This document shows positions 7,508-38,202 of a stretch of DNA of 51,088 bases, one piece after another (the stretch's first letter is position 1; the number at the start of each line of letters is the position of its first letter). The notes beneath the pieces are model-generated. The model was not told where the DNA came from, searched no databases, and worked only from the letters and a program-made list of their open reading frames with translations. Position numbers and translations under genes: made by a program. Source of the stretch: a virus. Taxonomy: Duplodnaviria; Caudoviricetes. Where the stretch lies: the IMG/VR virus record IMGVR_UViG_3300020045_016223, positions 1 through 51,088 of that record. One strand, written 5' to 3'.

Positions 7508-8179
7508 TTAATCTTTGGTTTTCACTTCAATATCCATTATTTTTCCTTTTTCAAAATCTTCTGTCTTTATTTTACATATCACACGTCTGTGAAGTGAATC
7601 AAAAAGAGGAATTGCGGTCTTTCCTATCATCCCTTCGGCTTTAATTGATCCATCCCCAAGAATTGACCTAAATCCATTTTTTGTAACGTGACAAGCTTCA
7701 TTTAAATTGCTAATAGGTAATATAGGAACCACATCAAATCCTAAATTTTTGCAAATTTCTTCTAAGTCAGAACGTTTTAACCAAAATTTACCTGAAACCA
7801 AAATATCAAAGACAATAAACTTTTCTGTGTCACTATACTTTCCACCACGTAACTTATCTTTTTCTCCTGCTTGAATTTTCCCGCCATATCCCTCACCAAA
7901 GATAACGACATCTTTATCTCCAAATATTTCTTGAAGCTTTTCCATTGAAATAATATCAAAAATATAATGTTCAATAGCTTTTGGAACTTCAGCATTTTCA
8001 GTACGGCCGCCAAGTTCAAGGCAATTTCCTTTCAAGATTCTAATATTGGTGCCATCAATTTTTTCTGTAAATTCCCACTCTCTTATTATTGAATAAATTT
8101 GGTTTTTATATCTATTTGTATTGACTTTGAATGTCTTTTCATCACGATTAAATACAGTCTCAATTTTTGGGTATAACAT
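7508..8179 (-). CDS. ATP-dependent RNA ligase (Rnl2-like adenylyltransferase domain)
   Basis: YPKI; motif I TEKIDGTN; FGEGYG; FIVFDI; AEGMI; KIK. Start placed at MLYPKI behind a GAGG RBS. Confidence 0.85.
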   Translation of the reverse strand: MLYPKIETVFNRDEKTFKVNTNRYKNQIYSIIREWEFTEKIDGTNIRILKGNCLELGGRTENAEVPKAIEHYIFDIISMEKLQEIFGDKDVVIFGEGYGGKIQAGEKDKLRGGKYSDTEKFIVFDILVSGKFWLKRSDLEEICKNLGFDVVPILPISNLNEACHVTKNGFRSILGDGSIKAEGMIGKTAIPLFDSLHRRVICKIKTEDFEKGKIMDIEVKTKD

Positions 8180-8299
8180 TTTAATCCTCATCGCTTTGTT
8201 TTTATATAACCAATCTTTTATATCTTTAGGAAGTCTATCATATTGTATGTATCCTCAGTCATTACAGATTGTTTTTTGATGTTAGGTACCGGATATACT

Positions 8300-13053: not shown

Positions 13054-14271
13054 GTGAATTTACAGTCTTTTAAAAAAATACATAGAAGTTTCTCAGATAG
13101 GCTAGACATTTACAATCCTAAAATAGAACAAAGGTTTGTTGATGAAGCCGCTCTGTATTCCTCATCTCTTCATGCCTTTGTTAAGGGTGCTTGGCCAATT
13201 ATAGAAGGAGGACGGGAATTTGTAGATGGATGGCATATTCAGGCTATCTGTGAGCATTTAGAAGCCGTTTATAGAGGAGAAATAAAAATGCTCCTTATTA
13301 ACGAACCGCCACGTTGCATGAAATCAACGGCATTTCCTGTATCTATGCCAGCTTGGATATGGACACGTGAACCATCTTTTCAATTCCTATTCTTATCCTA
13401 TGTTGCAAGGCTAACTATAAGAGACAGCGTAAAATGTCGCCGTATTATCAACTCAAAATGGTATCAGGAAAGATGGGGTCATACATTTCAACTTCTAGGA
13501 GATGTTAACTCAAAGATTAGGTTTGATAACAACAAGACAGGCTATCGAATTGCTACATCTATTGGAGGAGCAGGAACGGGAGAGGGAGGGGATATTATCG
13601 GGATAGATGACCCTAATGACGCTGGTGAGACAGAATCAGATGTTATCAGGGAATCAACAAATGAATGGTGCGACCATGTTTTATCAACGCGTTTAAACAA
13701 TCCAAAAACAGGAAGGATTGTTGTCGTTCAACAAAGATTACATTCACAAGATTATTCGGGACATATTTTATCTAAGGAAATCCCAGAACTTGTCCATCTT
13801 TGCTTACCTATGGAGTTTGAGAGGTCGCGTAGGTGCATAACTGTCCCACTTCCTAGTACAAATGGAAAGCCTTGGAAAGACCCACGCTTGAATGATGGTG
13901 ATTTGTTATGGCCTGAACGATTCGGGGCTGAACAAGTCGAAACCTTAAAAAAGTCAATGAATAGTGAGTATGTCATTGCAGGACAGCTTCAACAACGCCC
14001 TTCTCCCGCTAAAGGAGGAATTCTTAAAAAGGATTGGTTCCAATGGTGGAAAGAGCCATCTCCCCCCCAATGTGAATTTGTCCTTCAATCATGGGATACG
14101 GCTTTAAGCACAAAAGCAAATGCTTGTTATAGTTGTTGTACCACTTGGGGAGTTTTTAAAGATAAATACGATGTATCTCACGCTATCTTGCTTGATACAT
14201 GGCATGGCAGGGTAGAATATCCTGATTTGCGTAGAATGGCGACAAGGTTAGCCCGATATGATTCTCATTGA
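13054..14271 (+). CDS. terL: Terminase large subunit, N-terminal part (ATPase plus start of nuclease)
   Basis: GWHI..ICEHLE, INEPPRCMKS (Walker A), IGIDDP (Walker B), VQQRLH, QLQQRP, QSWDTA. Confidence 0.92.
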   Translation: MNLQSFKKIHRSFSDRLDIYNPKIEQRFVDEAALYSSSLHAFVKGAWPIIEGGREFVDGWHIQAICEHLEAVYRGEIKMLLINEPPRCMKSTAFPVSMPAWIWTREPSFQFLFLSYVARLTIRDSVKCRRIINSKWYQERWGHTFQLLGDVNSKIRFDNNKTGYRIATSIGGAGTGEGGDIIGIDDPNDAGETESDVIRESTNEWCDHVLSTRLNNPKTGRIVVVQQRLHSQDYSGHILSKEIPELVHLCLPMEFERSRRCITVPLPSTNGKPWKDPRLNDGDLLWPERFGAEQVETLKKSMNSEYVIAGQLQQRPSPAKGGILKKDWFQWWKEPSPPQCEFVLQSWDTALSTKANACYSCCTTWGVFKDKYDVSHAILLDTWHGRVEYPDLRRMATRLARYDSH

Positions 14272-14638
14272 AGCAAAAGCAAATGGATTGTCTCTCATAC
14301 AGGATTTAAACCGTGCAGGATTAATAGTTAACCGTTTTGACCCTGTTAAACATGGAGGGGGAGACAAAACAGTTAGGGCACGTCTTATGAGCCATGTATT
14401 AGAAGCTGGTAGGGTATGGGTTCCTGCTAAACCTCCACATTATACATCCCTACGTAATTATGCTGATGTTTTTGTAGATGCGTGCACATCATTCCCTAAT
14501 GACGTGGATTCACGGGATTATGTAGATAGCATGAGCCAAGCTATTATAAAGCTTATGTCGTCAGGACTTATAGGCAATCCTGATGACGCAGAATTAAGTT
14601 TAAGGTATAATAGGTGGGAAGGTGAGAAATTCTATTAA
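14258..14638 (+). CDS. terL: Terminase large subunit, C-terminal nuclease part in the +1 frame
   Basis: (PD)MILIEAKANGLSLIQDL, DKTVRA, GRVWVP, FPN...DYVDSMSQA. Confidence 0.88.
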   Translation: MILIEAKANGLSLIQDLNRAGLIVNRFDPVKHGGGDKTVRARLMSHVLEAGRVWVPAKPPHYTSLRNYADVFVDACTSFPNDVDSRDYVDSMSQAIIKLMSSGLIGNPDDAELSLRYNRWEGEKFY

Positions 14639-16173: not shown

Positions 16174-18495
16174 ATGCCAGACGAATTCAAAGAAGATCAT
16201 CTATATCAACTCCCATCTATCCTTGATCAAATCAACATTGAGGATATCTCTTTTAATGAGGATGATGAAGCAGTCGAGCAATTCATCCAACCTAACTTTT
16301 CAGGCCATAATGAAAACCTAGCAGAAAAACTTCCAGACAGTGTTTTAAACAAAATTTCCTCCAGATTAATTGATGATATAGAAAATGACATCATTTCCCG
16401 TAAGGATTGGGAAGATGGGCTCGTTGATATATTGAAGCAACTTGGCATCAAGGTTGATAAGAGAACTTTTCCATTTGAGGGGGCAAGCGGTATCTATTCC
16501 CCTATTGTCATGAGGACAGTTGTTGAATTTTATGTCAGTGCTGTCCCTGAGCTTCTTCCTTTAGAGGGGCCTATAAAACAACTCATTATAGGGCAAGTGA
16601 CAAAAGAGCTGGAAGAAATCGCAAATCGCGTAGAAACATGGTCAAATATTTATTTTACCAAAGAAGCTCCTGAGTATTACTCAGATTTCAAAAAAATGCT
16701 CATGTGGCTAGGGGTTATCGGAGATACAGTTAGAAAAACATATTTTGATCCTATTCTGAAACGTCCTACTTCTAAATTCATTTTTCCTCAAGATTTTATC
16801 GTAAAATACGGCACAACAGACCTTGAAACATGCGACCGCATGACTGAAGTCATTCAACGTAACAAAATAGATATGGCACGATATAAGCAACTCGGTATCT
16901 ATCGTGATATTGATTTGCTTTCCGATGATGAAGATGATGAGACAAGCCTTAAAAAAACCATCAATTATGTAGAAGGGATAACAGTCCCTAACTATGAAGA
17001 GTCAGACACCTATACACTTTATGAGTCACATGTTTATCTTGATATTGAAGAATTAAAAAACAATGAAACTTCAGAATCAGATGTCAATGAAGATTTAGAA
17101 AAGAGCAACTACCGTCCATACATTGTAACAATTGATAAGAAAACAACAAAAATCCTTGCTATCTACAGGAATTGGGAAGAAAAAGACAATGATTTTGAGC
17201 GTCTAGATATATTCACTAATTATGTTTACATGGAAGGTCTTGGGTTCTATGGCTTTGGTGCTGCACATCTTATCGGAGGACTTGCAGAAGGTTCTACGAT
17301 GCTATTGCGGCAAACAATAGATGGACAGACTCTATCAAACTTTCCTGGTGGTTTGCGTGTTAAAGGAACGCGTGCCGTTGATAATAACCTAAAAGTAGGC
17401 CCTACAGAGTTTATAGAGATAGATACAGGCGGCCAACGTATCCAAGACGCTATTATGTTGATGCCTTATAAGGAACCATCTCCTTATATTAATGAATTGC
17501 GTAAGGAGCTAGAAGCTGCTGCATCCGGTGTTATGGGAGCAGCAAACTCACAAATAGCTGACTTTAACCCAAATGTTCCAGTTGGAACAACATACGCTCT
17601 CCTGGGTCTTCTTTATAAGGTACAAAGCACGGTCATTCGCGGTATCAGGGATTCTATGTCAAAGGAATTCAAAATATTCTACCGCTTGTTTTCAAAACAT
17701 CTTCCTGATGTTGCTTATGATTTTGATGGTGCTGGTATCTCATCCCAAATAAGTTCACATGATTTTATTGAAAATGTCCATATTGTTCCGATAGCTGATC
17801 CGCACGTCACATCAGAAGTGCAAAGGCTTATAAGAAGCCAGTTAATCGTAGATTCCGCAAATCAGTCCCCAGACCTTCATAATCGGTATGAAGCATACAG
17901 GATGCTTTATCAATCTATGAAGCTGTCAGAATCCCAAATAAATGAATTATTGCCGCCGCCAAGCGAGACTATTCCTCTCGGCCCTGTAGAAGAAAACCAA
18001 AATTTAATAAAAGGTAAACCTGTTGTCGCATTTATTGAGCAAGATCACGCCTCTCATAATATAATCCATAGTTTGATAGAAAATGATCCTAATTCTCCGC
18101 CTGAAGTTATAGCAGCAACAATGGCACATAAAGCTGAACACACTGCTTTTGAATTCCGATTGAAAATTGAAAATATGATAGGATTTCAGCTACCGGAAAA
18201 TCCTTCAGATGTTCCTATAGAAGTACAAAACCAAATTGCAATGATGGTAGCCCAAGCCATTATGCAACAACAACAGCAACAGCAACAAGAAGCTCCTCCG
18301 CCTCCTCTTGATCCTGCTCTTGTTATGTTGGAAGAAGTCAAGGTGAAGGACAAGGGCATTGATGAAAAAGCAAAAGCTGACCAGCTAAAAGCAGAAACAG
18401 AATCATTTAAAGCCCAACTTAATTACGAAGCAGAGATGAAAAAAATTGAATTGGGTGAGAAAGAATTAGAATTAAAAGCAGCAGGTATTATTTAA
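16174..18495 (+). CDS. Portal protein
   Basis: 773 aa after TerL; SRKDWE, PFEGASG, GLGFYGFG..HLIGGL, LRQ.ID..TLSN.PGG, MPYKEPS; Gln-rich helical barrel. Confidence 0.9.
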   Translation: MPDEFKEDHLYQLPSILDQINIEDISFNEDDEAVEQFIQPNFSGHNENLAEKLPDSVLNKISSRLIDDIENDIISRKDWEDGLVDILKQLGIKVDKRTFPFEGASGIYSPIVMRTVVEFYVSAVPELLPLEGPIKQLIIGQVTKELEEIANRVETWSNIYFTKEAPEYYSDFKKMLMWLGVIGDTVRKTYFDPILKRPTSKFIFPQDFIVKYGTTDLETCDRMTEVIQRNKIDMARYKQLGIYRDIDLLSDDEDDETSLKKTINYVEGITVPNYEESDTYTLYESHVYLDIEELKNNETSESDVNEDLEKSNYRPYIVTIDKKTTKILAIYRNWEEKDNDFERLDIFTNYVYMEGLGFYGFGAAHLIGGLAEGSTMLLRQTIDGQTLSNFPGGLRVKGTRAVDNNLKVGPTEFIEIDTGGQRIQDAIMLMPYKEPSPYINELRKELEAAASGVMGAANSQIADFNPNVPVGTTYALLGLLYKVQSTVIRGIRDSMSKEFKIFYRLFSKHLPDVAYDFDGAGISSQISSHDFIENVHIVPIADPHVTSEVQRLIRSQLIVDSANQSPDLHNRYEAYRMLYQSMKLSESQINELLPPPSETIPLGPVEENQNLIKGKPVVAFIEQDHASHNIIHSLIENDPNSPPEVIAATMAHKAEHTAFEFRLKIENMIGFQLPENPSDVPIEVQNQIAMMVAQAIMQQQQQQQQEAPPPPLDPALVMLEEVKVKDKGIDEKAKADQLKAETESFKAQLNYEAEMKKIELGEKELELKAAGII

Positions 18496-21431: not shown

Positions 21432-23075
21432 ATGTTTCCTAAAATTATTCTATTTGGTAATGAAAACCGAACTAAAATGCTGGAAGGCATCAACATCCTG
21501 GCTAACTCTGTTAAATCTACCTTAGGTCCACAAGGAAGAAATGTTGTTATAGCAGTTAAAAATAAACCAATCCGTTTCACGAAAGATGGTGTTTCTGTTG
21601 CCAAAGAAGTTTGTTTGGAAGATGCAGTGCAAGAGACAGGGGTCAATATCATAAAAGAAGTTGCCCTTAATACATGCGATACGGTAGGAGATGGAACTAC
21701 AACAGCCACCGTTATTGCACAAAATATTATTAGCCAAGGAACATCTTATTTAGAAAATGGTCATAATCCTATGGATTTGAAGAGAGGTATAGATATCTCT
21801 ATTGAATTCGTAGAAAAATATTTGCGTGAGAAGTCCATTGATGTTTCTACAGATGAAGAAGTCATTAACATTGCAAAAATTGCTTGTAATGGAGATAGGG
21901 AGCTTGGAGAGCTTATTGCCAGTACATTTAAGAAAGTTGGGAAAGAGGGTGTAATAACTTTAGAAGAATCTTCTTCCGGTAAAACAGAAGTAACGATGAC
22001 AGAAGGACTTCAACTTGATAAAGGGTTTATTTCTCCTTATTTCGTAACAAATCCAGCTAAAATGGTCTGTGAATTGGAGAATCCATATATCCTTGTGTAT
22101 GACAAGAAAATATCTACTCTTCAACCTATGTTTCCTCTTCTTGACTCTATCGTTTCTTCTAATGATTCCTTATTGATTATTGCCGAAGATGTAGACTCTG
22201 AAGCGTTGGCCAGTCTTGTTATTAACCATAAAAAGAATGGGTTTAAGATTGCAGCTATTAAAAGTCCATCTTTTGGATTGCAAAAAGTAGATTTGATTTC
22301 TGATCTTTCGGTTATGACAGGTTCTAAAATGGCTTCCGAGGATATGGGAATAAAATTGGAAGGCATACGAAAAGATATGCTCGGACGCGCTAAAAAAATC
22401 ATCATTAGTGCTGAAAAAACAATAGTTGTTGGGGGATATGGTGACCAAAAAGAAATTCAAGAAAGATGTGAATATCTAAGGAATGAAATTGAATCTTGTG
22501 ATAATCCACAGATGAAAAACCATCTCCAAGAAAGGCTTGCAAGGCTTACAAATGGGGTAGCCGTTGTTAAAGTAGGTGGAATCAGTGATTTTGACATAAA
22601 AGAACGTAAAGACCGTGTTGAAGATGCTATTCATGCAACAAGAGCAGCCTTACAAGAAGGTATATTGCCTGGTGGTGGTATTGCCTTATTGAATGCTTCT
22701 AATCATTTAAACTCTTTAGATTGTGAACATAATCCAAAGATAGCGCATGGTATTTATTTAATTGAAACCGCTTTGAAAGCTCCTTGGAACCAAATCCTTG
22801 AAAATGCAGGGCTAATTCCTGAAGAAATATATGAAGGTCTTGACAGACACGCTGAAAATTCATTTCGATTAGGATATGATGCTTTAAACTTCCAATACGT
22901 TAATATGATTGATGCTGGAATTATTGACCCTACCAAAGTCGTTATCACTGCCTTTAAAGATGCTGCTTCTATCGCAGGATTACTATTAACGACAGAAGTT
23001 GCTCTTATCGAAGAGAATGAAATTACTCTTGATACAGTACAAGGCTCATCTAGCTCAATTAAGGTGAGAGTTTGA
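21432..23075 (+). CDS. groEL: Chaperonin GroEL (Cpn60), phage-encoded
   Basis: STLGPQGRNV, TKDGVSVAKE, GDGTTTATV, GFISPYF, IIAEDV, LQERLARL..GVAV, KDRVEDA, PGGG, GIIDPTKV; no GGM tail. Confidence 0.97.
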   Translation: MFPKIILFGNENRTKMLEGINILANSVKSTLGPQGRNVVIAVKNKPIRFTKDGVSVAKEVCLEDAVQETGVNIIKEVALNTCDTVGDGTTTATVIAQNIISQGTSYLENGHNPMDLKRGIDISIEFVEKYLREKSIDVSTDEEVINIAKIACNGDRELGELIASTFKKVGKEGVITLEESSSGKTEVTMTEGLQLDKGFISPYFVTNPAKMVCELENPYILVYDKKISTLQPMFPLLDSIVSSNDSLLIIAEDVDSEALASLVINHKKNGFKIAAIKSPSFGLQKVDLISDLSVMTGSKMASEDMGIKLEGIRKDMLGRAKKIIISAEKTIVVGGYGDQKEIQERCEYLRNEIESCDNPQMKNHLQERLARLTNGVAVVKVGGISDFDIKERKDRVEDAIHATRAALQEGILPGGGIALLNASNHLNSLDCEHNPKIAHGIYLIETALKAPWNQILENAGLIPEEIYEGLDRHAENSFRLGYDALNFQYVNMIDAGIIDPTKVVITAFKDAASIAGLLLTTEVALIEENEITLDTVQGSSSSIKVRV

Positions 23076-24893: not shown

Positions 24894-26079
24894 ATGGCGA
24901 TTATTACATTACAATCAATTCAGAATTTGCTTCGGCCTGGTCTGGCCGCAGTATTCGGAGACTACTTGGTCTATCCTGACCAGTGGAAAGAAATATTCAC
25001 AAGCCACGTTTCAAACAAAGCAGTTGAGTATGAAGTTGAAATGAGACTTTTACCTATGGCTCAATTTAAGCCGGACGGTGGAGCAGTTCAATACGGTGAT
25101 ATGGCACAAGCTTATACTACCTCTTATTTCCACAGAAACTTTGGTATCGGGTTAATTTCCAAGATTGTGAATTTTTTCACAATCAAAACGGCTCCGTTAT
25201 ACGGCAACGTATAAATTGAAACTGGGTGAACTCAGGGAACATCCCATAGGGACAATCCTGAGCCAAGCCGTCGAAAGACGGAAGGTGCAACGACTAGATC
25301 GAAAGATCGTAGAGCCAAGCGGCTCGAAGCGCCCAGCACCCTACAGGGGTGAAGATATAGTCTCCTCTCACAAGCAATTGTGAGCAGTCCGAAAGGGCGG
25401 GTTAGAAGTCGCGATTCTAACTGAAGATAAGGTTCAGATTACGGCCAATACTATTCGTGACAACCTTTACAAGGATTCTTGGCCACGTGCTACCGAATCC
25501 GGTAAGGACTCTATGCGTCAAGCTAAAAATATTGAAGGCGCAAACGTTCTTAACCAAGGGTTCAATGTTTCGTACCCGGTGAGCGACGGTCAGCCTTTGT
25601 TTTCAACGCAACATCCCGTTCAGGGAAACACTGTGCCAAACACATTCGCATTGCCGACACAGCTCAATGAGACTTCTTTGCAAGATGCATTGATTGGAAT
25701 CCAGAAGTTCTTGAACGTTGCCGGACTTCGTATTGCTCTTCAGTCTGAAAAGTTGATTGTTCCTCCCGAACTTCAGTTCACGGCAAATGTTCTCTTAGAA
25801 AGCAAATATCGTACATCAACAGCTAATAACGATATTTCTGCAATCTATAATTTGAGTAGTGTTCCAATGGGATATCGCGTTAACCAATTCCTCACGTCAC
25901 CTTCAGCCTGGTTCCTTAATACAAATGAAAGTAATGGTTATAAATACTATGAAAGGGATCCATTAACTATTGATATGTTTACAGATACAACTACTCGTAA
26001 CTTAAACGTTACTTTCGTAGAACGGTATTCATTTGGTTGTTCTAATTGGCGTGCAGGTTTTGCATCAGCAGGAGTATAA
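24894..26079 (+). CDS. Major capsid protein, spliced: exon 1 24894-25152, exon 2 25433-26079 (301 aa)
   Basis: Joining gives ...YFHRNFGIG-F-QITANTIRDNLY...; L.PGL.A.FG, DGQPLFS..HP, LIVPPELQF, ERYSFG motifs; 259+647=906 nt, in frame. Confidence 0.92.
25153..25432 (+). ncRNA. Group I self-splicing intron, 280 nt, no homing endonuclease
   Basis: Exon ends in U, intron ends in G; P AACTCAGGGAA, Q AATCCTGAGCC, R GTGCAACGACTA, S AAGATATAGTCT; P3 CTGGGTG/CGCCCAG; GNRA-capped P2 and P9. Confidence 0.95.
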
Positions 26080-28676: not shown

Positions 28677-29732
28677 GTGGCATATAGTCAAACTTTTAAT
28701 TTCGGACAGACTACCCTTGTTGAATCCTTTGTAAAGGACTCATTCGAGTTATGTGGCATCTCCGGTTCCGATATTTCAGGTTTGCAAAGCGATTCAGCTC
28801 TTTTAAGTCTTAATTTCCTTCTTTCTGATTGGGCTAATAAAGGGCTTAATTTATTTACAGAGCAAAAAGCTATGATCCAGCTTAAGGTTGGACAGCCAAA
28901 TTATCCTCTTAATTCCTATACAATCAAAGTGACGGAAGTTACAGCAAGCAATAATACGGTACTATCCGGTGGCGTTGCCTTTTCAAGTTCCGGTGGAAAT
29001 GCTGCAAATGCTTTTAATGGTTCTCCAAACTCTGCAAACCCATGTACGCAAACTTCCCCAAACGGATATATTTCCTATACATATCCGCAAGGGAATACGC
29101 CTTCTGTTTATTATATTGGCGTTCAATCCAATGTAAGTACAAACTATAATCTTGTATTTGAATATTCCTATGATGGAAATGTTTGGATGAGTAGCCTTGA
29201 TATCGGTTCTAAATATTATCCTGTGGGACAAATTATTTGGGCTGCTGTTAATTCTCCTGTTAGTGCGCAATCCATCAGAATTAGGGAAACAGGTGGGGCA
29301 ACCCTAAGTGTTCAACAAATCTATTTTTCTATGCCTTCTTTTAGTCGAATATTGACGCCTATTTCCCGTGAGGAATGGACATCCTATCCAAATAAGCAAA
29401 CCCAAGCTACGCCTTCTAGTTATTATCTAGATCGTCAAATTGTTCCTGCTTTGAATTTATGGCCTACACCGGATAACAGCTATCAAACTTTAGTATTTAA
29501 TCAGCAAATAGCAATCATGGATGTAACTTCCCTAAACCAAAATATATTCATACCTCAAAGATTTATGAATGCTTGTCGTTTTGGATTGGCATACGAAATG
29601 GCATTAAAATTTGCAATTGATAAAGCAGATAGGCTGTCTCTCCTTTCTACGGATGCTTATAAATGGGCTGCATTAGAAGATGAGGAAAAGGTTCCCGTGC
29701 GCATTCAACCAAATATGTATTCATATACGTGA
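28677..29732 (+). CDS. Head-tail adaptor/neck protein with an internal beta-sandwich domain
   Basis: SLNFLLSDWANKGLNL, ISREEW...PNK...PS.YY.DRQ..P.L.LWPTPD, IPQRF...GLAY..A. Confidence 0.75.
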   Translation: MAYSQTFNFGQTTLVESFVKDSFELCGISGSDISGLQSDSALLSLNFLLSDWANKGLNLFTEQKAMIQLKVGQPNYPLNSYTIKVTEVTASNNTVLSGGVAFSSSGGNAANAFNGSPNSANPCTQTSPNGYISYTYPQGNTPSVYYIGVQSNVSTNYNLVFEYSYDGNVWMSSLDIGSKYYPVGQIIWAAVNSPVSAQSIRIRETGGATLSVQQIYFSMPSFSRILTPISREEWTSYPNKQTQATPSSYYLDRQIVPALNLWPTPDNSYQTLVFNQQIAIMDVTSLNQNIFIPQRFMNACRFGLAYEMALKFAIDKADRLSLLSTDAYKWAALEDEEKVPVRIQPNMYSYT

Positions 29733-29743
29733 GGATATAGAAA

Positions 29744-30166
29744 ATGTTTCCACACGGTAGATGGGTAAAGATAGATGAACAAAATCCTGATGCGGTTGCG
29801 CGTTGTGATCGGTCAGGACAACTTTGTAACTATAACGATCTTGTAAAGCAAATGGATTATAGGGGACTGGGTTTAGTATGGACAGGTCTTTACGTTAATA
29901 AATATTTCTTAGATGAGCCGAATCCCCAGAGTTTAAACCCGGTTATACGACCTGATCCGCCCCCTTTGCAACATCCAAGGCCATGGCAAACAACACAAGC
30001 TGTATGGCCTACGCAATCATTACCTTGGAATACACAAACTACTGATTGCATGAATTCATCTACTACATGCCAGACCCTATCATATCCTATATGGGCTTCA
30101 TGGGGAGATTGGGAAGGACAAGTAGGGCAAGTAGGACAAGCAACGCCAGAAACAGGAGATAATTAA
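29744..30166 (+). CDS. Small neck-region protein
   Basis: AVARCDRSG...WTGL.V...DEPNPQ...DP.P...PRP. Confidence 0.7.
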   Translation: MFPHGRWVKIDEQNPDAVARCDRSGQLCNYNDLVKQMDYRGLGLVWTGLYVNKYFLDEPNPQSLNPVIRPDPPPLQHPRPWQTTQAVWPTQSLPWNTQTTDCMNSSTTCQTLSYPIWASWGDWEGQVGQVGQATPETGDN

Positions 30167-31959
30167 TGGCGACAACACCTCCAATGTTTACAACAGGTAT
30201 TTCTACTTTATCACCCGCTTCAACGTATCCTGACTTATTGTTAATGAATAATGCAGGTCAAGGGCTTAACAATACGCCATCTCAGGTACAAGACGGTCTG
30301 GGAAACAGAACCAATATGACTATCAGCGCAAATTATATCAATTTTGATAGGAGTGTTTCTCAGTTTCAACTTGATGGTGTTGCTTTAACGGCAAGTGCAG
30401 CAACTCTTAATAACATTACTGATGTGGCAAATGGCCAATATATTTTAGTGTCATCTAATTCTCAATTGCCAAATGCATCTACACTTTCTGCAACTAATGG
30501 GATTTCTTTAACATCAAGTGCCGGAAATATAACCATACAACCTACTGTTAATTCTCCTTTATCTGAAATTCAACAATTGGTTGGTGGACCAAATGGCATT
30601 CTTGTTTATGAGAATGATGCACCTTTTGGAACAGTTAACCTTATCAGTGATGCAACCATTAATATCGTAAATCCTGATGGTACGACTGGAAACCCAACAT
30701 TTAATGTCGTTACTGATACAAACCGTCAACGCGTAAATGTCCAGCTTAACGGCGTATATCAAAGCCAAAAATCTCAGATAAACTTTATCCCAGGCCCCGG
30801 TTCCGGCATTAATGTTGTTGATAACCCAAGTTCAAACAGGACAGATATCACGATATCGGGAACTCCAGGAAGTGCATTTAGTTTTGTAGCAGCAGTGTAT
30901 GCGACAACAACGGCAAACTTAACCTCTACATATAACAATGGTGTATCAGGTGTAGGCGCAACTTTAACGTCTACAGTGGATGGCGCATTTACGACAGACG
31001 GAATAACTCCTATACAAAATGAAGTTATCCTTGTCAAAGACCAAACGACACCTGCTCAAAATGGTATCTATATATTGACAACAGCAGGTGACATTGCAAC
31101 TCCATGGGTTTTAACGCGTGCTAACTATTTTGACCAACCTTCCGAAATCAAGCCAGGTGATATCGTTATCGTCCTTCATGGTAACATATACCAATATACA
31201 GGATGGGTTGAGACCGCAAAGGTTACTACAGTTGGAACAGACCCAATAAACTTCGTTACATTCGGTGTTACAGGTACCGTTACAAGCGTTTCCGGTACGG
31301 CAGGACAGATTGATGTCGTCAATGGCACAACAACTCCTATTATTTCTATTGACCCTGCTTACGTAGGGCAAGCCTCTATAACAACCTTGGGAATAGTCGA
31401 TACGGGCACATGGAATGCTGATTTAATTGATGTTCCCTATGGTGGGACTGGCATCAATTCAACAACTGCGTATGGTGTTCTCTGTGGTGGTACTACAGCT
31501 ACTAACCCTCTTCAAAATGTAGGAACAGGTGTCGTTGGGGAAGTATTGACTTCTTCTGGTCCTGGTGCTCTTCCACAATGGCTATCACCTGGGGCAGCAT
31601 CTTTTAATAATGCTGTACACCAGGTTGGTCATAGTCTCGTTGTCGGTAATGTAATTAGGATTAATAATGTCGGACATTATGTCGTTGCACAGGCCAATAA
31701 TGTAGCCAATGCAACAAGCGTTGTCGGTATAGTTGTTGAAATCATAGATGCCGATAACTTTGTTTATCAATTTGGAGGAATCGTAACGGTTCTAAGTGCC
31801 CTTACAGTTGGTGATCCTTATTTCCTCGATCCTGCGGTTGCAGGGGGTTATACATCTACAGTCCCAACTACACCAGGAGAAGTTGTTTTGCCTTTATTTT
31901 TTGCTTTAACAGCTGTAGAGGCATTATGGCAACCCGCTTCTGCGACCCTATTGGCTTAA
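30166..31959 (+). CDS. Tail fibre/spike-like protein 1
   Basis: Thr/Gly/Asn-rich; shares ILVKDQT..A.NGIY and VPYGGTG modules with neighbours. Confidence 0.75.
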   Translation: MATTPPMFTTGISTLSPASTYPDLLLMNNAGQGLNNTPSQVQDGLGNRTNMTISANYINFDRSVSQFQLDGVALTASAATLNNITDVANGQYILVSSNSQLPNASTLSATNGISLTSSAGNITIQPTVNSPLSEIQQLVGGPNGILVYENDAPFGTVNLISDATINIVNPDGTTGNPTFNVVTDTNRQRVNVQLNGVYQSQKSQINFIPGPGSGINVVDNPSSNRTDITISGTPGSAFSFVAAVYATTTANLTSTYNNGVSGVGATLTSTVDGAFTTDGITPIQNEVILVKDQTTPAQNGIYILTTAGDIATPWVLTRANYFDQPSEIKPGDIVIVLHGNIYQYTGWVETAKVTTVGTDPINFVTFGVTGTVTSVSGTAGQIDVVNGTTTPIISIDPAYVGQASITTLGIVDTGTWNADLIDVPYGGTGINSTTAYGVLCGGTTATNPLQNVGTGVVGEVLTSSGPGALPQWLSPGAASFNNAVHQVGHSLVVGNVIRINNVGHYVVAQANNVANATSVVGIVVEIIDADNFVYQFGGIVTVLSALTVGDPYFLDPAVAGGYTSTVPTTPGEVVLPLFFALTAVEALWQPASATLLA

Positions 31960-31971
31960 GGAGAATATATA

Positions 31972-33354
31972 ATGGGAACAAACGTAAACACGACAGTCGT
32001 AAATAGGTTAAATGGTGGCCCTGGTAGCCAGGGATATGCGGCTTTAGGAGATGGAAGTGCATTTGTCCAACTGAGTGAAGATGGCATAAATCCTTCCAGC
32101 ATTATTTTTGGAAAATGGGAATCTACACCCGTAGATATCGAATACGGTGGAACTAATGCTAATACGGCTCCCCAAGCACTGACAAATCTTGGTGCGTTGC
32201 CTATTGCAGGTGGAACCATGACAGGCCAACTTATTTTGAATTCTACTCCCATTGCCCCTCTTGCAGCAGTTACAAAGCAATATGCAGATGCAATTTCCGC
32301 TGGTCTAAATTTTAAACAACCTTGTTATGCTGCTACAACAGGTAACCTAAATGCGACATACGATAACGGTACTTCCGGCGTAGGGGCTACATTGACGAAT
32401 GCTGGTGTTAATGCGGCTTTCACCTTGGACGGAACTTCTCCCCCCTTAAACTCAAGAATTTTAGTTAAAGACCAAACAACGCAAGCAGATAATGGAATTT
32501 ATATTTTAACTATAGTCGGAGACGGCTCAACCCCATGGGTTTTAACCAGAACGACAGATTACAATACAGTTGCTCAAATTTACCCTGGAAACTTTATCCT
32601 TATCACGGCAGGGATAGCTAATCAAAATTCAGGATGGATACAGGTAAATATTGTTTCCACTATCGGAACTGACCCGATTGCATTTGCAGAATATGGAGCA
32701 TCCGGTACCGTAACAGATGTCTTGGGTACGGCAGGTAAAATTGTAGTCACAAATGGAACAACAACCCCAACAGTTAGCATTGACCCAACATATATAGGGC
32801 AAGATTCTATAACAAATGTTGGAACAATTGATAGAGGTACATGGCAAGGAAATACCGTTGATGTTCTATATGGTGGAACAGGTGGAAGCATATTTGGACA
32901 ATACAGCGTAATATGTGGTGGCTCAACGTTAGATGACAATTTTCAATATGTAAACCCAGGAATTGCCGGGCAGGTATTTACATCTTCTGGCGCAGGTGCA
33001 CTTCCAACTTGGCAAGACCCCACAGGGCCAAAATGGATTGATCAGACATCTACCTCAGTCACTATGGCTGTTGATACAAACTATGTAGCGGATAATATCG
33101 CTCTTGTAACTCTTACATTGCCTGCAATAGTTCCTTTTGGTTCTACATTCCAGGTTACAGGAAAAGGGTCTGGTGGATGGAAAATTTCCCAGGCAGCAGG
33201 GCAGACGATAAATTTTGGAAATGCGCCAACAACAACAGGTACAAGCGGTTATCTAGCAAGTACCAACCGTTTCGATTCAGTAACATTAGTATGCGTAACA
33301 GCTAATACAGAATTTGTTGTTTATGCTCCTGTAGGTAATATTATTGTTAACTAA
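31972..33354 (+). CDS. Tail fibre-like protein 2
   Basis: LPIAGGTMTG.L.L...P....AVTKQYAD fibre motif; shared modules. Confidence 0.8.
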   Translation: MGTNVNTTVVNRLNGGPGSQGYAALGDGSAFVQLSEDGINPSSIIFGKWESTPVDIEYGGTNANTAPQALTNLGALPIAGGTMTGQLILNSTPIAPLAAVTKQYADAISAGLNFKQPCYAATTGNLNATYDNGTSGVGATLTNAGVNAAFTLDGTSPPLNSRILVKDQTTQADNGIYILTIVGDGSTPWVLTRTTDYNTVAQIYPGNFILITAGIANQNSGWIQVNIVSTIGTDPIAFAEYGASGTVTDVLGTAGKIVVTNGTTTPTVSIDPTYIGQDSITNVGTIDRGTWQGNTVDVLYGGTGGSIFGQYSVICGGSTLDDNFQYVNPGIAGQVFTSSGAGALPTWQDPTGPKWIDQTSTSVTMAVDTNYVADNIALVTLTLPAIVPFGSTFQVTGKGSGGWKISQAAGQTINFGNAPTTTGTSGYLASTNRFDSVTLVCVTANTEFVVYAPVGNIIVN

Positions 33355-34167: not shown

Positions 34168-35166
34168 ATGACTCAAAATAATGCAATTAACTCCCCCCTT
34201 CCCACATCGCTTGCGTTAGGTGGAACGAATGCCACATTGACGGCTTCGAATGGCGGACTATTTTATAGTACGGCATCTGCCGGAGCTATCCTGTCCGGTA
34301 CGGCAACCTCACAACAGATAGTCCTGTCAGGTTCTTCATCTGCACCTTCATGGTCTACTGCCACTTATCCATCTACTACTACGGCAAATCAGCTTTTATA
34401 TTCCTCGTCCAACAATGTTGTTGGTGGTTTATCTACAACTGGTAGCGCATGTTTGATTACAAACAGTTCCGGTGTTCCTTCCTGGTCATCATCTATGACC
34501 AACGGACAGGTAATTATAGGAAGTACAAGTGGCACCCCAACCGCAGCTACTTTAACAGCAGGAACTAATGTAACGATTACAAATGGCCCAGGTAGCATTA
34601 CGATAAATTCAACAGCAGGTGGTTCTGGAAATTGGGTGTGGATTGCGACACAGACGGCTTCATCCAGTGCATCTTTGAATTTTAATAGCCAATTCAGCTC
34701 AACTTATATTGCATATCATATTGTTTTGGTCAATATCTTACCTGCAAGTGCTTCAGCTAATTTATGGTTAAGGTTAGGTACAGGAGCAGGTCCAACATAT
34801 ATATCAACAGGTTATATATATCAGCTTTGCGATATTAATAATAATGGATCAAGTAATGCTTATCCAGGTTATGGAGGAACTGCTTTCAATCAGGTATTGC
34901 TTACGTATGCTAATGGTAATGGTATCAGCACATCAGCAACCTATGGTGGCGTATGTGGGTCTGTTGACTTATTTATAACTTCAGGATCATCTGTTGTTGG
35001 TAACGGTATAAGCAATATGTCCTATGAGTCATATAGTAATACTTCACATTATGCAAATACGACATCTACTTTCCAACAGCCAGCAGCCAATTTCACATCT
35101 GTTCAATTATTGATGAGTACCGGAAATATAGCATCCGGTTCAGCTTATTTGTATGGGTTAACTTAA
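34168..35166 (+). CDS. Short fibre paralogue B
   Basis: Same N-terminus; TASSSASLNF...SGSAYLYG tip domain. Confidence 0.8.
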   Translation: MTQNNAINSPLPTSLALGGTNATLTASNGGLFYSTASAGAILSGTATSQQIVLSGSSSAPSWSTATYPSTTTANQLLYSSSNNVVGGLSTTGSACLITNSSGVPSWSSSMTNGQVIIGSTSGTPTAATLTAGTNVTITNGPGSITINSTAGGSGNWVWIATQTASSSASLNFNSQFSSTYIAYHIVLVNILPASASANLWLRLGTGAGPTYISTGYIYQLCDINNNGSSNAYPGYGGTAFNQVLLTYANGNGISTSATYGGVCGSVDLFITSGSSVVGNGISNMSYESYSNTSHYANTTSTFQQPAANFTSVQLLMSTGNIASGSAYLYGLT

Positions 35167-35215
35167 TTTATTATAGGTTTGGGTCGTATGGTAGCTACCA
35201 AAAATGTGAGGTTAA

Positions 35216-36223
35216 ATGGCTACAAATAATATCACAAACTCCCCCCTTCCCACATCGCTTGCGTTAGGTGGAACGAATGCCGCATTGACGGCCTCAAATG
35301 GGGGCATATTTTATAGCACGGCATCTGCGGGGGCTATTCTATCTGGAACGGCTACGGCAAACCAAATGCTTCAATCAGGAGCTTCTGGTGCCCCTTCTTG
35401 GTCAACCGCTACCTATCCTGCTACGACAACGGCTAACCAACTTCTCTATTCCTCGTCCAACAATGTTGTTGGTGGTTTATCTACAACTGGTAGCGCATGT
35501 TTGGTTACAAACAGTTCCGGTGTTCCTTCCTGGTCATCATCTATGACCAACGGACAGGTAATTATAGGAAGCACAAGTGGCACCCCAACCGCAGCTACTT
35601 TAACAGCAGGAACCAATGTAACGATTACAAATGGTCCAGGTAGCATTACGATAAATTCGACAGCAGGTGGTTCTGGAAATTGGGTATGGATTGCGACACA
35701 GACGGCTTCCTCTAGTGCATCTTTGAATTTTGATAACCAATTTAGTTCAACTTATATTGCTTACCGCCTTGTTTTAAAAAACATTTTGCCAGTAAGTGCT
35801 TCAACTAACTTATTGTTAAGGTTAGGTACAGGAGCAGGTCCAACATATATATCAACAGGTTATATATATCAGATATTAGAAGTTTCTAGAAATTCATTAG
35901 ATCAATTTAATCCTTCTTATAAAGGATATACAGGGACGGGTTTTAGTGGCGCACTAATTACATATAACAATAATGGTGGAATTATCAATAACTCAACTTA
36001 TGGTGGCGTGTGTGGAACTATTGATTTATTTGTTACTGCGGGATCATCTCAAGTGGCTAATGGTATCAGCAAAATGTCTTATAAAGGAGCTTCACCCGCA
36101 GATTATGTAAGTACAAACTGTTTTTTCCAGCAACCGTCAGCTAGTTTTACGTCTGTTCAATTATTGATGCTTACCGGAAATATAGTCTCCGGTTCAGCTT
36201 ATTTGTATGGGTTAACTGCTTAA
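35216..36223 (+). CDS. Short fibre paralogue C
   Basis: Near-identical DNA to B over the shaft; divergent tip loops. Confidence 0.8.
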   Translation: MATNNITNSPLPTSLALGGTNAALTASNGGIFYSTASAGAILSGTATANQMLQSGASGAPSWSTATYPATTTANQLLYSSSNNVVGGLSTTGSACLVTNSSGVPSWSSSMTNGQVIIGSTSGTPTAATLTAGTNVTITNGPGSITINSTAGGSGNWVWIATQTASSSASLNFDNQFSSTYIAYRLVLKNILPVSASTNLLLRLGTGAGPTYISTGYIYQILEVSRNSLDQFNPSYKGYTGTGFSGALITYNNNGGIINNSTYGGVCGTIDLFVTAGSSQVANGISKMSYKGASPADYVSTNCFFQQPSASFTSVQLLMLTGNIVSGSAYLYGLTA

Positions 36224-36274
36224 TTTTAAAAAACATTTGAGATATTAAAACTATTTATCCTATATGAGGTTTAG

Positions 36275-37270
36275 GTGATTATAACCAATGCTATTAATTC
36301 CCCGCTTCCCACATCACTTGCATTAGGTGGAACGAATGCCGCATTGACGGCATCAAATGGCGGTATATTTTATAGCACGGCATCTGCAGGGGCTATTCTA
36401 TCTGGAACGGCTACGGCAAACCAAACACTTATGTCAGGAGCTTCAACATCACCCACTTGGTCAACTGCCACTTATCTTCCGACAACTACAGCTAATCAAC
36501 TTCTCTATTCTTCAGGAACTAATGCGATTGGTGAGTTAGCAACTGATAATAGTGCTTGTTTGGTTTCTGACACTGAACTCCTCCCTATTATTACCTCCTA
36601 TCCTGTGTGGTCATTACCAATGCAAGATGGACAAATTATAATAGGTGGAACAAGTGGAAGGCCAGAGCCATTCAATTTAACCTCAAATTCAACACTGACA
36701 ATTACAAATGGCTCAGGAAGTATTACAATAGATTCCCACATGGCAATGTTGACAGCTTCAAACAGTGCTTCCTTGAATTTTGATAACGTTTTTAGTCCAA
36801 ATTATGTATCCTACCGTATGGTTTTAAAGAATATATTTCCTCATAATTCTTTCGCAAATTTATATTTAAGATTTGGTACTGGTACAACAAACCCAAATTA
36901 TATATCATCAGGGTATACATATCAACTTTTGGATGTTTCAAATAATGGAGCAAATGTTACTTACCCAGGTTATACAGGGTCTACTTTTAGCCAAGCATTG
37001 CTTACGTATGCTGCTAATCAAGGAATTTCTAATTTAATACCTTATGATGGGGTTTGTGGATATATTGATTTATTTGTTACTTCGGGTACATCAAATGTAG
37101 CAAGTGGCATAAGTAGGTTATCTTATGAATCGGCAAACAATGTTGTACGTTATGTTAATACAACTTGTGCTTTTCAGCTTCCAGAAGACAATTATACTTC
37201 TGTACAATTGTTAATGAGTGATGGACTTATTTACTCTGGAACAGCTTATTTATATGGTTTTTCAACCTAA
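36275..37270 (+). CDS. Short fibre paralogue D
   Basis: Same N-terminus and tip fold, more diverged shaft. Confidence 0.8.
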   Translation: MIITNAINSPLPTSLALGGTNAALTASNGGIFYSTASAGAILSGTATANQTLMSGASTSPTWSTATYLPTTTANQLLYSSGTNAIGELATDNSACLVSDTELLPIITSYPVWSLPMQDGQIIIGGTSGRPEPFNLTSNSTLTITNGSGSITIDSHMAMLTASNSASLNFDNVFSPNYVSYRMVLKNIFPHNSFANLYLRFGTGTTNPNYISSGYTYQLLDVSNNGANVTYPGYTGSTFSQALLTYAANQGISNLIPYDGVCGYIDLFVTSGTSNVASGISRLSYESANNVVRYVNTTCAFQLPEDNYTSVQLLMSDGLIYSGTAYLYGFST

Positions 37271-37296: not shown

Positions 37297-38202
37297 ATGT
37301 CTTTCATCCTCACATATAACACTCTTTATGAAAAGACGGTAAGCTATCTTGAGAGGCTTGATGAAACTGTTACCCATGATTTTGATGCTTGGGTAAAATT
37401 TGCGCATGACCGTATCGGAAGGGATTCCAATACACAATTGTTTGAAGTGTACATATCAGGCACCTTTACGCCAGGTATATCCGTTATCCCAAAACCTGCC
37501 CGTTGGCAAAATACCATTACTTTCAATTATGGAACAGGCGCAAACATTGTAACATTAGGTAATAATCCTTTATCTACAGATGGTGCTACATCTACCGTCA
37601 CCGTTACGATTCCTTCTACCGTTGGATTAGTTAACGGACAGACAGTTATCATATCAGGAGCAACAGGAGGAGGAGGACTCACACCATCGCAACTAAATGT
37701 AGCTTCTCCTATTACAATTATCAGTGGAACGATATTCACATATTCTGCAAGTGCTGATTCTACAAGCATAGCAACTATCGGTGGATCGGCTATTACGGCA
37801 TCTTTTCCAAACAATAATGTCTATACACCTATCTTATTGCGATCATTTGAATATGCGCGATCATTTTGGCCTAATCAATCTTTGACAAATCCACCAAAAT
37901 TTTATGCTGATTATGGATATTACAATTGGTTGATTTCTCCAACGCCAGACCAAAATTATCCTTTTGTTTTAGGATATTTGGAAACACCTCAAGTCATTGA
38001 TGAGACTTATCAATCAAATTACCTGACTGAATTCATGCCGGAAGTCTTGTTAAAAGCTGTCCTTCTAGAAGCGATGCTTGACCTAAAGAACGATGAGAGA
38101 ATTCCTGTTATAGAAGCTGAATATGTAAAAGCTATTTCTTCCTGGAATGCAAAAGATAAATTACGAAAAATTGACCGTTATGTATCAAGAGAGGCTGATT
38201 AA
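37297..38202 (+). CDS. Tail adaptor protein with one inserted beta module
   Basis: TY..L...YLER.D, KPARW, LLR.FEY.R..WP...PKFYADY.Y..WL..PTPD, LKNDERIP; insert at 37555-37809. Confidence 0.8.
   Translation: MSFILTYNTLYEKTVSYLERLDETVTHDFDAWVKFAHDRIGRDSNTQLFEVYISGTFTPGISVIPKPARWQNTITFNYGTGANIVTLGNNPLSTDGATSTVTVTIPSTVGLVNGQTVIISGATGGGGLTPSQLNVASPITIISGTIFTYSASADSTSIATIGGSAITASFPNNNVYTPILLRSFEYARSFWPNQSLTNPPKFYADYGYYNWLISPTPDQNYPFVLGYLETPQVIDETYQSNYLTEFMPEVLLKAVLLEAMLDLKNDERIPVIEAEYVKAISSWNAKDKLRKIDRYVSREAD

Follow-up and report, generated by a model that had tools for sequence, protein, structure and literature searches.

The major capsid protein gene of a tailed phage (IMG/VR virus record IMGVR_UViG_3300020045_016223; the entire record, 51,088 nucleotides (nt) in length and rated as approximately 98% complete, was analysed and is referred to below as the window) is represented by two open reading frame (ORF) fragments in the same direction: 24894..25214, encoding 106 amino acids (aa), and 25513..26079, encoding 188 aa. 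What separates them is a group I intron. The 280-nt, ORF-less segment at 25153-25432 (+) matches the Rfam group I family, RF00028, at 94.0 bits (gathering threshold 50; E = 5e-23); the match extends over 25159-25384 (+) and covers positions 1-253 of the 253 in the model, and RF00028 is the sole Rfam family to reach gathering level in the window. The intron region folds better than any of 100 shuffled versions of itself (-106.9 kcal/mol, z = -5.6) and is also set apart by its composition: its G+C content, 47.9%, exceeds that of the exons (41.4%) and that of the window (36.7%). Several features that mark membership of group I are present: a full-length model match, the core helices, a U:G pair in P1, a terminal G and restoration of the reading frame upon excision. 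An earlier note on this DNA, made from its letters alone, had proposed an ORF-less group I intron splitting the capsid gene, and had named the Rfam search as a way of checking it; with that search made, the proposal is confirmed.

The interrupted gene is a major capsid gene of Mu gpT-like type, and the insertion is in phase 1 of codon 87. T25152 is the last exon base and G25432, the terminal G that the note had pointed out, is the last base of the intron; excision generates the junction ...ATCGGGT / TTCAGATT... and fuses the two fragments in frame, again as claimed: the resulting 906-nt frame encodes a 301-aa protein that reads FHRNFGIG-F-QITANTIR across the junction, with NFGIGFQITANTIR as its predicted junction-spanning peptide. 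Exon 2 on its own suffices to identify the gene: it matches PF10124 (Mu-like gpT) at 38.6 bits (cut-off 20.1) and phrog_371 (major head protein) at E = 1.5e-10, and with it as the query 6,522 proteins are retrieved at E <= 0.001, lengths of 300-302 aa predominating among the 120 matches listed. The homologues reach 93% identity over exon 2 and carry precomputed PF25209 and PF10124 assignments. Fifteen of them, compared with the product spliced in silico, are between 94.4% and 56% identical to it; all fifteen align without a gap at the junction block (...HRNFGIGFQITANTIRDNLYK..., among the best-conserved parts of the alignment) and nine do so over their full length. The intron-less homologues, at 301 aa, are colinear with the spliced product. 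The ungapped junction block shows that the splice junction put forward in the note is correct to the base. A sequence search with an intron-less homologue (P0001) found no solved structure.

Left unspliced, the capsid message would be translated only as far as the in-frame TAA at 25212-25214, which yields the 106-aa truncated product that had been foreseen. Since unspliced RNA yields only this fragment, virion production depends on splicing. This is also the only recognisable capsid gene of the record: none of the 40 other window ORFs scanned against PHROGs matches a major-head family. The consequence for annotation is immediate: the capsid gene is currently called as two or three fragments (106/110, 188/216 or 240 aa) here and in several relatives represented in public protein sets, and recognising the intron restores a single capsid gene of 301 aa.

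The proposed course of splicing is as follows. The late transcript would fold so as to pair exon AUCGGGU with guide GCUCCGU; free guanosine would attack after U25152; the freed exon would in turn attack after G25432, and ligation of the exons would generate the message for the 301-aa capsid protein. That catalysis is by guanosine-initiated self-splicing is something that we infer from the sequence, as is the route by which the intron spreads (considered below). No homing-endonuclease family match was found among 64 window ORFs compared with Pfam or among 40 compared with PHROGs, and the sole ORF inside the intron, which is 55 aa long and overlaps the core, has no Pfam match; no homing-endonuclease gene was found within the intron.

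The helices of the intron (Table 1) were placed on the sequence and then tested on a MAFFT alignment of 15 copies of the intron lineage (designated A2). From P2 to P9.2, 87.5% of the 951 cells are in standard pairs and 36 of 65 pairs have changed on both sides; none of 500 shuffles matches any of the five measures used, and sliding the partner strands by 1-3 columns lowers pairing to only 31-43%. Covariation supports P2, P3, P4, P6a, P7.1, P7.2 and P9 well; apart from P2, each of these is 95-100% paired, with 3-5 double-changed pairs. The core helices that had been named from the letters, P7 (GACTA/TAGTC) included, are in place. P7.1 and P7.2, situated between P7 and the 3' strand of P3, give the predicted fold an IA-like architecture: this pair of helices is typical of subgroup IA, and the narrower designation IA2-like is a presumption. 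The review PMC3984707 lists P7.1 and P7.2 only among the classifying features.

At the 5' splice site, U25152 pairs with G25191 of the guide sequence, as the note had said, and the last seven exon nucleotides fit the guide at 6 of 7 positions. The loop of P1 harbours the extra 9-bp hairpin that had also been described (GATTGTGAA/TTCACAATC; found at 25163-25184). Even with as many as 3 mismatches allowed, the window has just this one copy of it; the hairpin is absent from all 14 other copies in A2 and, judging from translated intron tails only, from five clusters of capsid protein fragments, to be described below, that appear to share the window's intron site. It looks like a small insertion private to the window variant, and a feature so distributed lends no support to the suggestion that it is the scar of a lost endonuclease.

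Contigs from sequencing runs bear on the integrity of the locus and on splicing. Those of DNA run X1, which is possibly the source sample, cross both intron borders (25058-25208 and 25203-25455) with 0-1 differences. The RNA-library run X16 holds a different strain, with an exon-1 contig approximately 88% identical to the window: one of its contigs starts in the end of the exon and crosses the 5' border into the intron (203 nt, 2 differences), and another joins 25152|25433 exactly and continues into an exon 2 of approximately 89% identity. Both begin at 25134, are preceded there by an identical stretch of 10 unmatched letters and have the end of exon 1 in common; the pair is a hint of pre-mRNA and spliced mRNA of one strain, joined at the predicted junction. 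The strain of X16 thus carries an intron approximately 99% identical to that of the window inside exons that are only 88-89% identical. (RNA run X15 contributes a 168-nt contig, 25169-25336, with 0 differences, which covers only the interior of the intron and no exon; it could reflect a stable excised intron or thin coverage, and is too little for a claim of intron accumulation.) That assembly stitched another phage's intron into this contig is hardly credible in the light of these findings. Related introns are indeed common in the same kinds of samples, but independent contigs cross both borders in X1 (with the qualification that this run is possibly the source sample), the 5' border is also crossed in X16, where the strain is a different one, and exon-1 proteins of five other clusters enter an intron at the same codon.

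The same material bears on whether the intron is a dead insertion, one that no longer splices or needs a missing helper and has turned the capsid gene of a defective phage into a pseudogene. Neither a maturase nor an endonuclease was found in the record, P1 is weak and splicing is only inferred; these points give the idea what little substance it has. It is nonetheless very improbable, because the model match is full-length and the covarying core intact, both exons are intact and specify a spliced protein up to 94% identical to intron-less homologues, the record is approximately 98% complete, the same intron recurs at 99% identity in a diverged relative, and the joined form appears in an RNA library.

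How widely is the intron distributed? The search for intron-less alleles in relatives that the note had recommended was made across 59 IMG/VR loci encoding related capsid proteins, compared over the relevant codons: 55 are uninterrupted at the window's site and at a second site described below, three (L019, L058 and L059) are ended there by the end of the contig, and only one, L014, is interrupted; it is also the only one of the 59 with an Rfam group I match (94.6 bits). An intron-less allele exists in DNA run X2, at approximately 98% exon identity: the contig skips 25145-25432, and in place of the last 8 exon bases (25145-25152) it has different letters, which still encode G-I-G-F. Co-conversion or site immunity would leave silent differences clustered in this manner where the guide binds. 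With 55 of 59 related genes lacking the intron and an intron-less allele of approximately 98% identity in existence, the intron is evidently dispensable and sporadic.

The L014 intron is the copy nearest to the window's: core identity is 85.3%, compared with at most 80.7% for the other 13 copies, and identity of the 3' domain is 83.3%, compared with at most 68.9%; in a tree of the intron copies the window, L014, phage C72C1 and L079b form a clade with support of 1.0. It is inserted at a different place, codon 62/63, which in the coding sequence is 72 nt upstream of the window's site. Judged by P1 pairing and by homology of the intron ends, it follows the first base of codon 63, although a shift by one base is also in frame; neither placement restores Gly63, which is present in 16 of 16 intron-less relatives examined and is replaced in the L014 exon. 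When U is held opposite G in fixed register, the guides of the window and of L014 each match 6 of 7 positions of their own exon and 4 of 7 of the other's, and the guide changes, at positions +1 and +5, track the exon. Searches with short patterns added little: a metagenome scan with a narrow 31-nt P7-P9 pattern yielded only L014's contig, and an IMG/VR search with a P3-P4 pattern yielded four stretches, namely L014's contig and three with other group I-like sequences and no related capsid gene. Another 19 IMG/VR stretches retrieved with a 3'-junction pattern have neither a related capsid protein nor an intron match and were set aside as chance matches.

More intron-bearing alleles are seen as proteins. 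A search with the 106-aa unspliced product retrieved eight, of which five (P0121, P0124, P0125, P0126 and P0127) are 110 aa long and 72-99% identical to the window's exon 1, and continue past ...NFGIG into the tail LISGPFAQ(K/Q)CANANRVNSGNLLAA or a close variant of it. From GPFAQQC on, this tail is the translated L014 intron, bar one residue. The five clusters accordingly carry an intron at the window's codon (site 2). Their introns, to judge from the translated tails, resemble that of L014 in having a longer P5 and no hairpin in the P1 loop; P0121 has an exon 1 that is 99% identical to the window's, yet the other intron variant. P0128 (72 aa) and P0026 (240 aa) are pieces of the L014 type. 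The 216-aa forms P0020, P0025 and P0029, which start MVQITANT, and the 188-aa forms P0032 and P0034, which start MRQAKN as does the window's 188-aa ORF, are consistent with second-exon pieces of genes that are interrupted. A third interruption or short contigs might account for the 247-aa forms P0004 and P0021, whose start is at Met54.

Might the intron serve the phage, its splicing (sensitive to GTP, Mg2+ or translation) gating late capsid synthesis as a checkpoint? Capsid production must pass through splicing, and the unspliced product stops at 106 aa; by the title, taken alone, of a 2007 study by Sandegren and Sjoberg, the splicing of T4 introns is said to be linked to translation and the host's growth state; and in-frame stop codons (TAA in the window, TGA in L014) fall at the 3' end of P2 in the same alignment columns, as compared by eye. 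The idea is nevertheless improbable. The intron is missing from 55 of the 59 related capsid genes and from the X2 allele, at approximately 98% exon identity; the position of the stop is not conserved, the five site-2 clusters reading through P2-P4 and stopping only in the P5 loop; and the sequence bears no sign of a ligand-sensing domain. The GTP/Mg-sensitive late checkpoint of the earlier note accordingly finds no support in the intron-less relatives and DNA allele. (The more limited notion that the stop at the end of P2 is a conserved device for keeping ribosomes off the core was also considered, and was rejected because the five site-2 clusters read on into P5.)

The segment at 25153-25432 is thus very probably an ORF-less group I intron of subgroup-IA type that is selfish and moves laterally, and that sits in the only recognisable capsid gene of this phage. 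Its designation as a selfish, mobile element follows from its absence from most relatives, from near-identical copies in diverged capsid genes and from the location of its closest relative at another site. Why, then, is it kept? Presumably because it is removed from RNA with sufficient efficiency. Several points weigh against this reading: 1) P1 is short (4 bp, a C:C mismatch and 2 further pairs), and pairing analysis turned up no convincing P10. 2) Free duplex folding fails to tell a guide's own exon from a foreign one (the window's exon scores -5.0 kcal/mol with its own guide and -6.0 kcal/mol with the L014 guide); the difference between own and cross guides is visible only in the fixed register. 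3) P9.1 and P9.2 are weakly supported and poorly aligned in A2, and any assignment beyond "IA-like" is tentative and comes from the presence of P7.1/P7.2. 4) The sole hint of splicing is one joined contig of an RNA library; that contig could also stem from an intron-less strain, from several strains mixed together or from contaminating DNA, and run X2 does contain an intron-less DNA allele.

Lacking an endonuclease gene, the intron would have to spread by recombination between co-infecting relatives, with an endonuclease provided in trans, or by reverse splicing, routes that are described for introns in PMC3984707. A more ambitious proposal, which we offer tentatively and regard as doubtful, is that this group of phages records an ORF-less group I intron that has been re-aimed within one protein-coding gene, with mobility that is free of endonucleases. 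Two sets of genes would constitute the record: one interrupted after codon 86 (the window and at least five exon-1 clusters), the other at codon 62/63 (L014 and the P0128/P0026 pair). The differences between intron copies are concentrated in the first dozen bases, which hold the guide sequence; these guide-region differences, together with the fit of each guide to its own exon, match the trace that reverse splicing followed by fixation in DNA would leave, and are the grounds for the proposal. If it is true, introns of 99% identity in exons of approximately 88% identity, combined with re-aiming, would amount to endonuclease-free intron mobility among phage late structural genes.

The rDNA group I introns offer a precedent of sorts: related introns at two positions are taken as circumstantial evidence of reverse splicing there (Hausner, Hafez and Edgell 2014, PMC3984707). 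The likeness lies in close introns at two sites of one gene, with each site complementary to its own guide; the differences are that the gene at hand is a protein-coding phage gene, that no reverse transcriptase is in sight and that the L014 exon is altered, with Gly63 replaced.

Group I introns in capsid genes have been published, and the window's intron is a further case. The remark in the earlier note that most phage introns are found in DNA-metabolism genes does justice to the classical cases, but does not hold for the capsid-gene introns already on record (PMC3706429, PMC7886860). Mycobacteriophage LittleE has a group I intron in its capsid gene, the splicing of which was demonstrated by reverse transcription-PCR and N-terminal sequencing (Pope et al. 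2013, PMC3706429); the same paper describes a related, 265-bp ORF-less intron in the minor tail gene of BAKA and mentions lactococcal phage Tuc2009. The window shares with the LittleE/BAKA case a major capsid gene of a tailed phage, a U before the 5' splice site and a terminal intron G, as well as the occurrence of related introns in different late structural genes, with an ORF-less copy and in only some of the relatives. The LittleE intron, in contrast, is approximately 820 bp long and has a LAGLIDADG-like frame, while the window's is 280 nt long and ORF-less and its splicing is predicted; capsid family and host also differ. In crAss-like phages of the Delta and Zeta groups, group I introns occur in the major capsid protein gene and in other core genes (Yutin et al. 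2021, PMC7886860). These too are metagenomic phage genomes with a capsid gene split by group I introns, but they are gut phages of 145-192 kb in which the introns were found through encoded protein domains and often number several per gene; the window has a single ORF-less intron in a 51-kb phage with portal and adaptor matches to SU10 families. In jumbo gut phages the average is 18.5 small introns per genome (PMC12880540). That a capsid gene should contain one small intron has ceased to surprise. What is useful here is the comparative set: one intron at two sites with matching guides, two variants at one site, and divergence of intron and exon uncoupled. It constitutes a compact system for studying the movement of endonuclease-less group I introns between phages.

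The top-ranked match to the intron in a collection of phages is in Phage C72C1 (OQ984150.1), at 72% identity and in the same intron clade; there, an RF00028 match of 81.8 bits lies between two coding sequences that are both called major head protein. The C72C1 capsid protein is unrelated to the window's: tblastn returns only E = 0.21, on the opposite strand. At this locus (1153-2354; L081), three small "hypothetical" coding sequences on the opposite strand are laid over the intron, and the feature table as returned has no intron.

A search with the core pattern extended the lineage to 20 stretches on 15 viral contigs, with introns that score 72-83 bits against RF00028. These introns lie in or beside late structural genes of high-GC uncultured phages (L061-L080): in phrog_267 major head genes (L073, L076, L079, L080), often as two copies approximately 806 nt apart; in tail sheath genes (phrog_165, phrog_23; L061, L062, L072); and, in L074, just upstream of a tail tube gene (PF10618). 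The cores of 11 high-GC copies in A2 are 74.5-80.7% identical to the window's, with L079b, at 61.6%, as an outlier. Like the window, these loci have the P7.1/P7.2 architecture in late structural genes; unlike it, they have phrog_267, phrog_165, phrog_23 or PF10618 host genes, double copies and endonuclease-like ORFs nearby, which are LAGLIDADG-, GIY-YIG- (below cut-off) or EndoVII/HNH-like. The two-intron arrangement of the phrog_267 capsid gene, with its spacing of approximately 806 nt, is seen at 1375-2407 of L076 and also in L063-L068, L070, L071, L077 and L079; LAGLIDADG-like ORFs lie upstream of the first intron in such loci. L079 has a further RF00028 match, of 72 bits, at 2543-2757.

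Table 1. Features of the interrupted capsid gene and of its intron (window coordinates; pairing and double changes refer to the alignment of 15 intron copies)
Feature	Position	Strand	Remarks
Major capsid gene, exon 1 (codons 1-86 and first base of codon 87)	24894..25152	+	AGGAG upstream of ATG
P1 5' strand AUCGGGU, last 7 exon nt, ending in the splice-site U	25146..25152	+	6/7 pairs with 25191-25197
Group I intron, 280 nt, ORF-less, predicted subgroup IA-like architecture	25153..25432	+	RF00028, covariation, composition
Extra 9-bp hairpin, UUUU loop, inside the P1 loop	25163-25171 / 25176-25184	+	private to the window variant
Internal guide sequence GCUCCGU; G25191 opposite U25152	25191..25197	+	only 4/7 fit to the L014 exon
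P2 (UAUACG / CGUAUA, GCAA loop)	25198..25213	+	6/6 pairs double-changed; TAA 25212-25214 overlaps the 3' end
P3 5' strand	25222..25228	+	partner 25330-25336; 98.1% of cells paired; 3 double-changed pairs
P4 (25232-25237 / 25256-25261), enclosing short P5 (25242-25245 / 25249-25252)	25232..25261	+	
P6a hairpin, GAAA loop	25268..25281	+	100% paired; 4 double-changed pairs
P7 5' strand GACUA	25292..25296	+	partner UAGUC 25358-25362; invariant in 15/15 copies
P7.1	25297-25300 / 25305-25308	+	98.3% paired; 3 double-changed pairs
P7.2	25312-25316 / 25321-25325	+	94.7% paired; 4 double-changed pairs
P3 3' strand	25330..25336	+	
P8 hairpin	25337..25351	+	83.8% paired; zero double changes
P7 3' strand UAGUC	25358..25362	+	
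P9	25367-25373 / 25378-25384	+	100% paired; 5 double-changed pairs
P9.1	25387-25390 / 25395-25398	+	58% paired on the MAFFT alignment
P9.2	25401-25407 / 25415-25421	+	47% paired on the MAFFT alignment
Terminal G of the intron (omega G)	25432	+	aligned with the last base of the L014, L074 and L062 copies
Major capsid gene, exon 2 (second base of codon 87 to stop)	25433..26079	+	PF10124, phrog_371, homologues

Some other features of the phage genome may be noted. A search of genome contigs found two distant relatives, at 54% (a metagenome-assembled genome of Saccharibacteria) and 43% (an unclassified metagenome-assembled genome), which is too little to name a host. A portal protein (below cut-off) and two adaptor-like proteins (16174-18495, 28677-29732 and 37297-38202) match the SU10-named families PF23899 and PF24175; these matches suggest a virion of podovirus type in which the capsid protein is Mu gpT-like. 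Upstream of the capsid gene, and only a few genes away from it, 21432-23075 encodes a GroEL-type chaperonin (phrog_5725, E = 1.7e-145; Cpn60_TCP1, 223.6 bits), and 7508-8191 (-) encodes a protein of the RNA ligase family (PF09414, 55.9 bits; phrog_548). The large terminase is read in two overlapping frames, 13054..14271 (phrog_38 positions 267-602) and 14258..14638 (phrog_38 positions 610-707); translation of the latter gives ...EWRQG*PDMILIEAKANG..., and a TAG lies just upstream. The split, at which there is no Rfam match, could be due to a frameshift, an assembly indel or recoding. Finally, similar genes are neighbours in two places: at 34168-37270, ORFs of 332 and 335 aa that match phrog_14820 are followed by a 331-aa ORF that has no family match, and at 30166-33354, ORFs of 597 and 460 aa share tail-fibre/decoration-like families. 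Both groups are probably duplicated tail or surface proteins.

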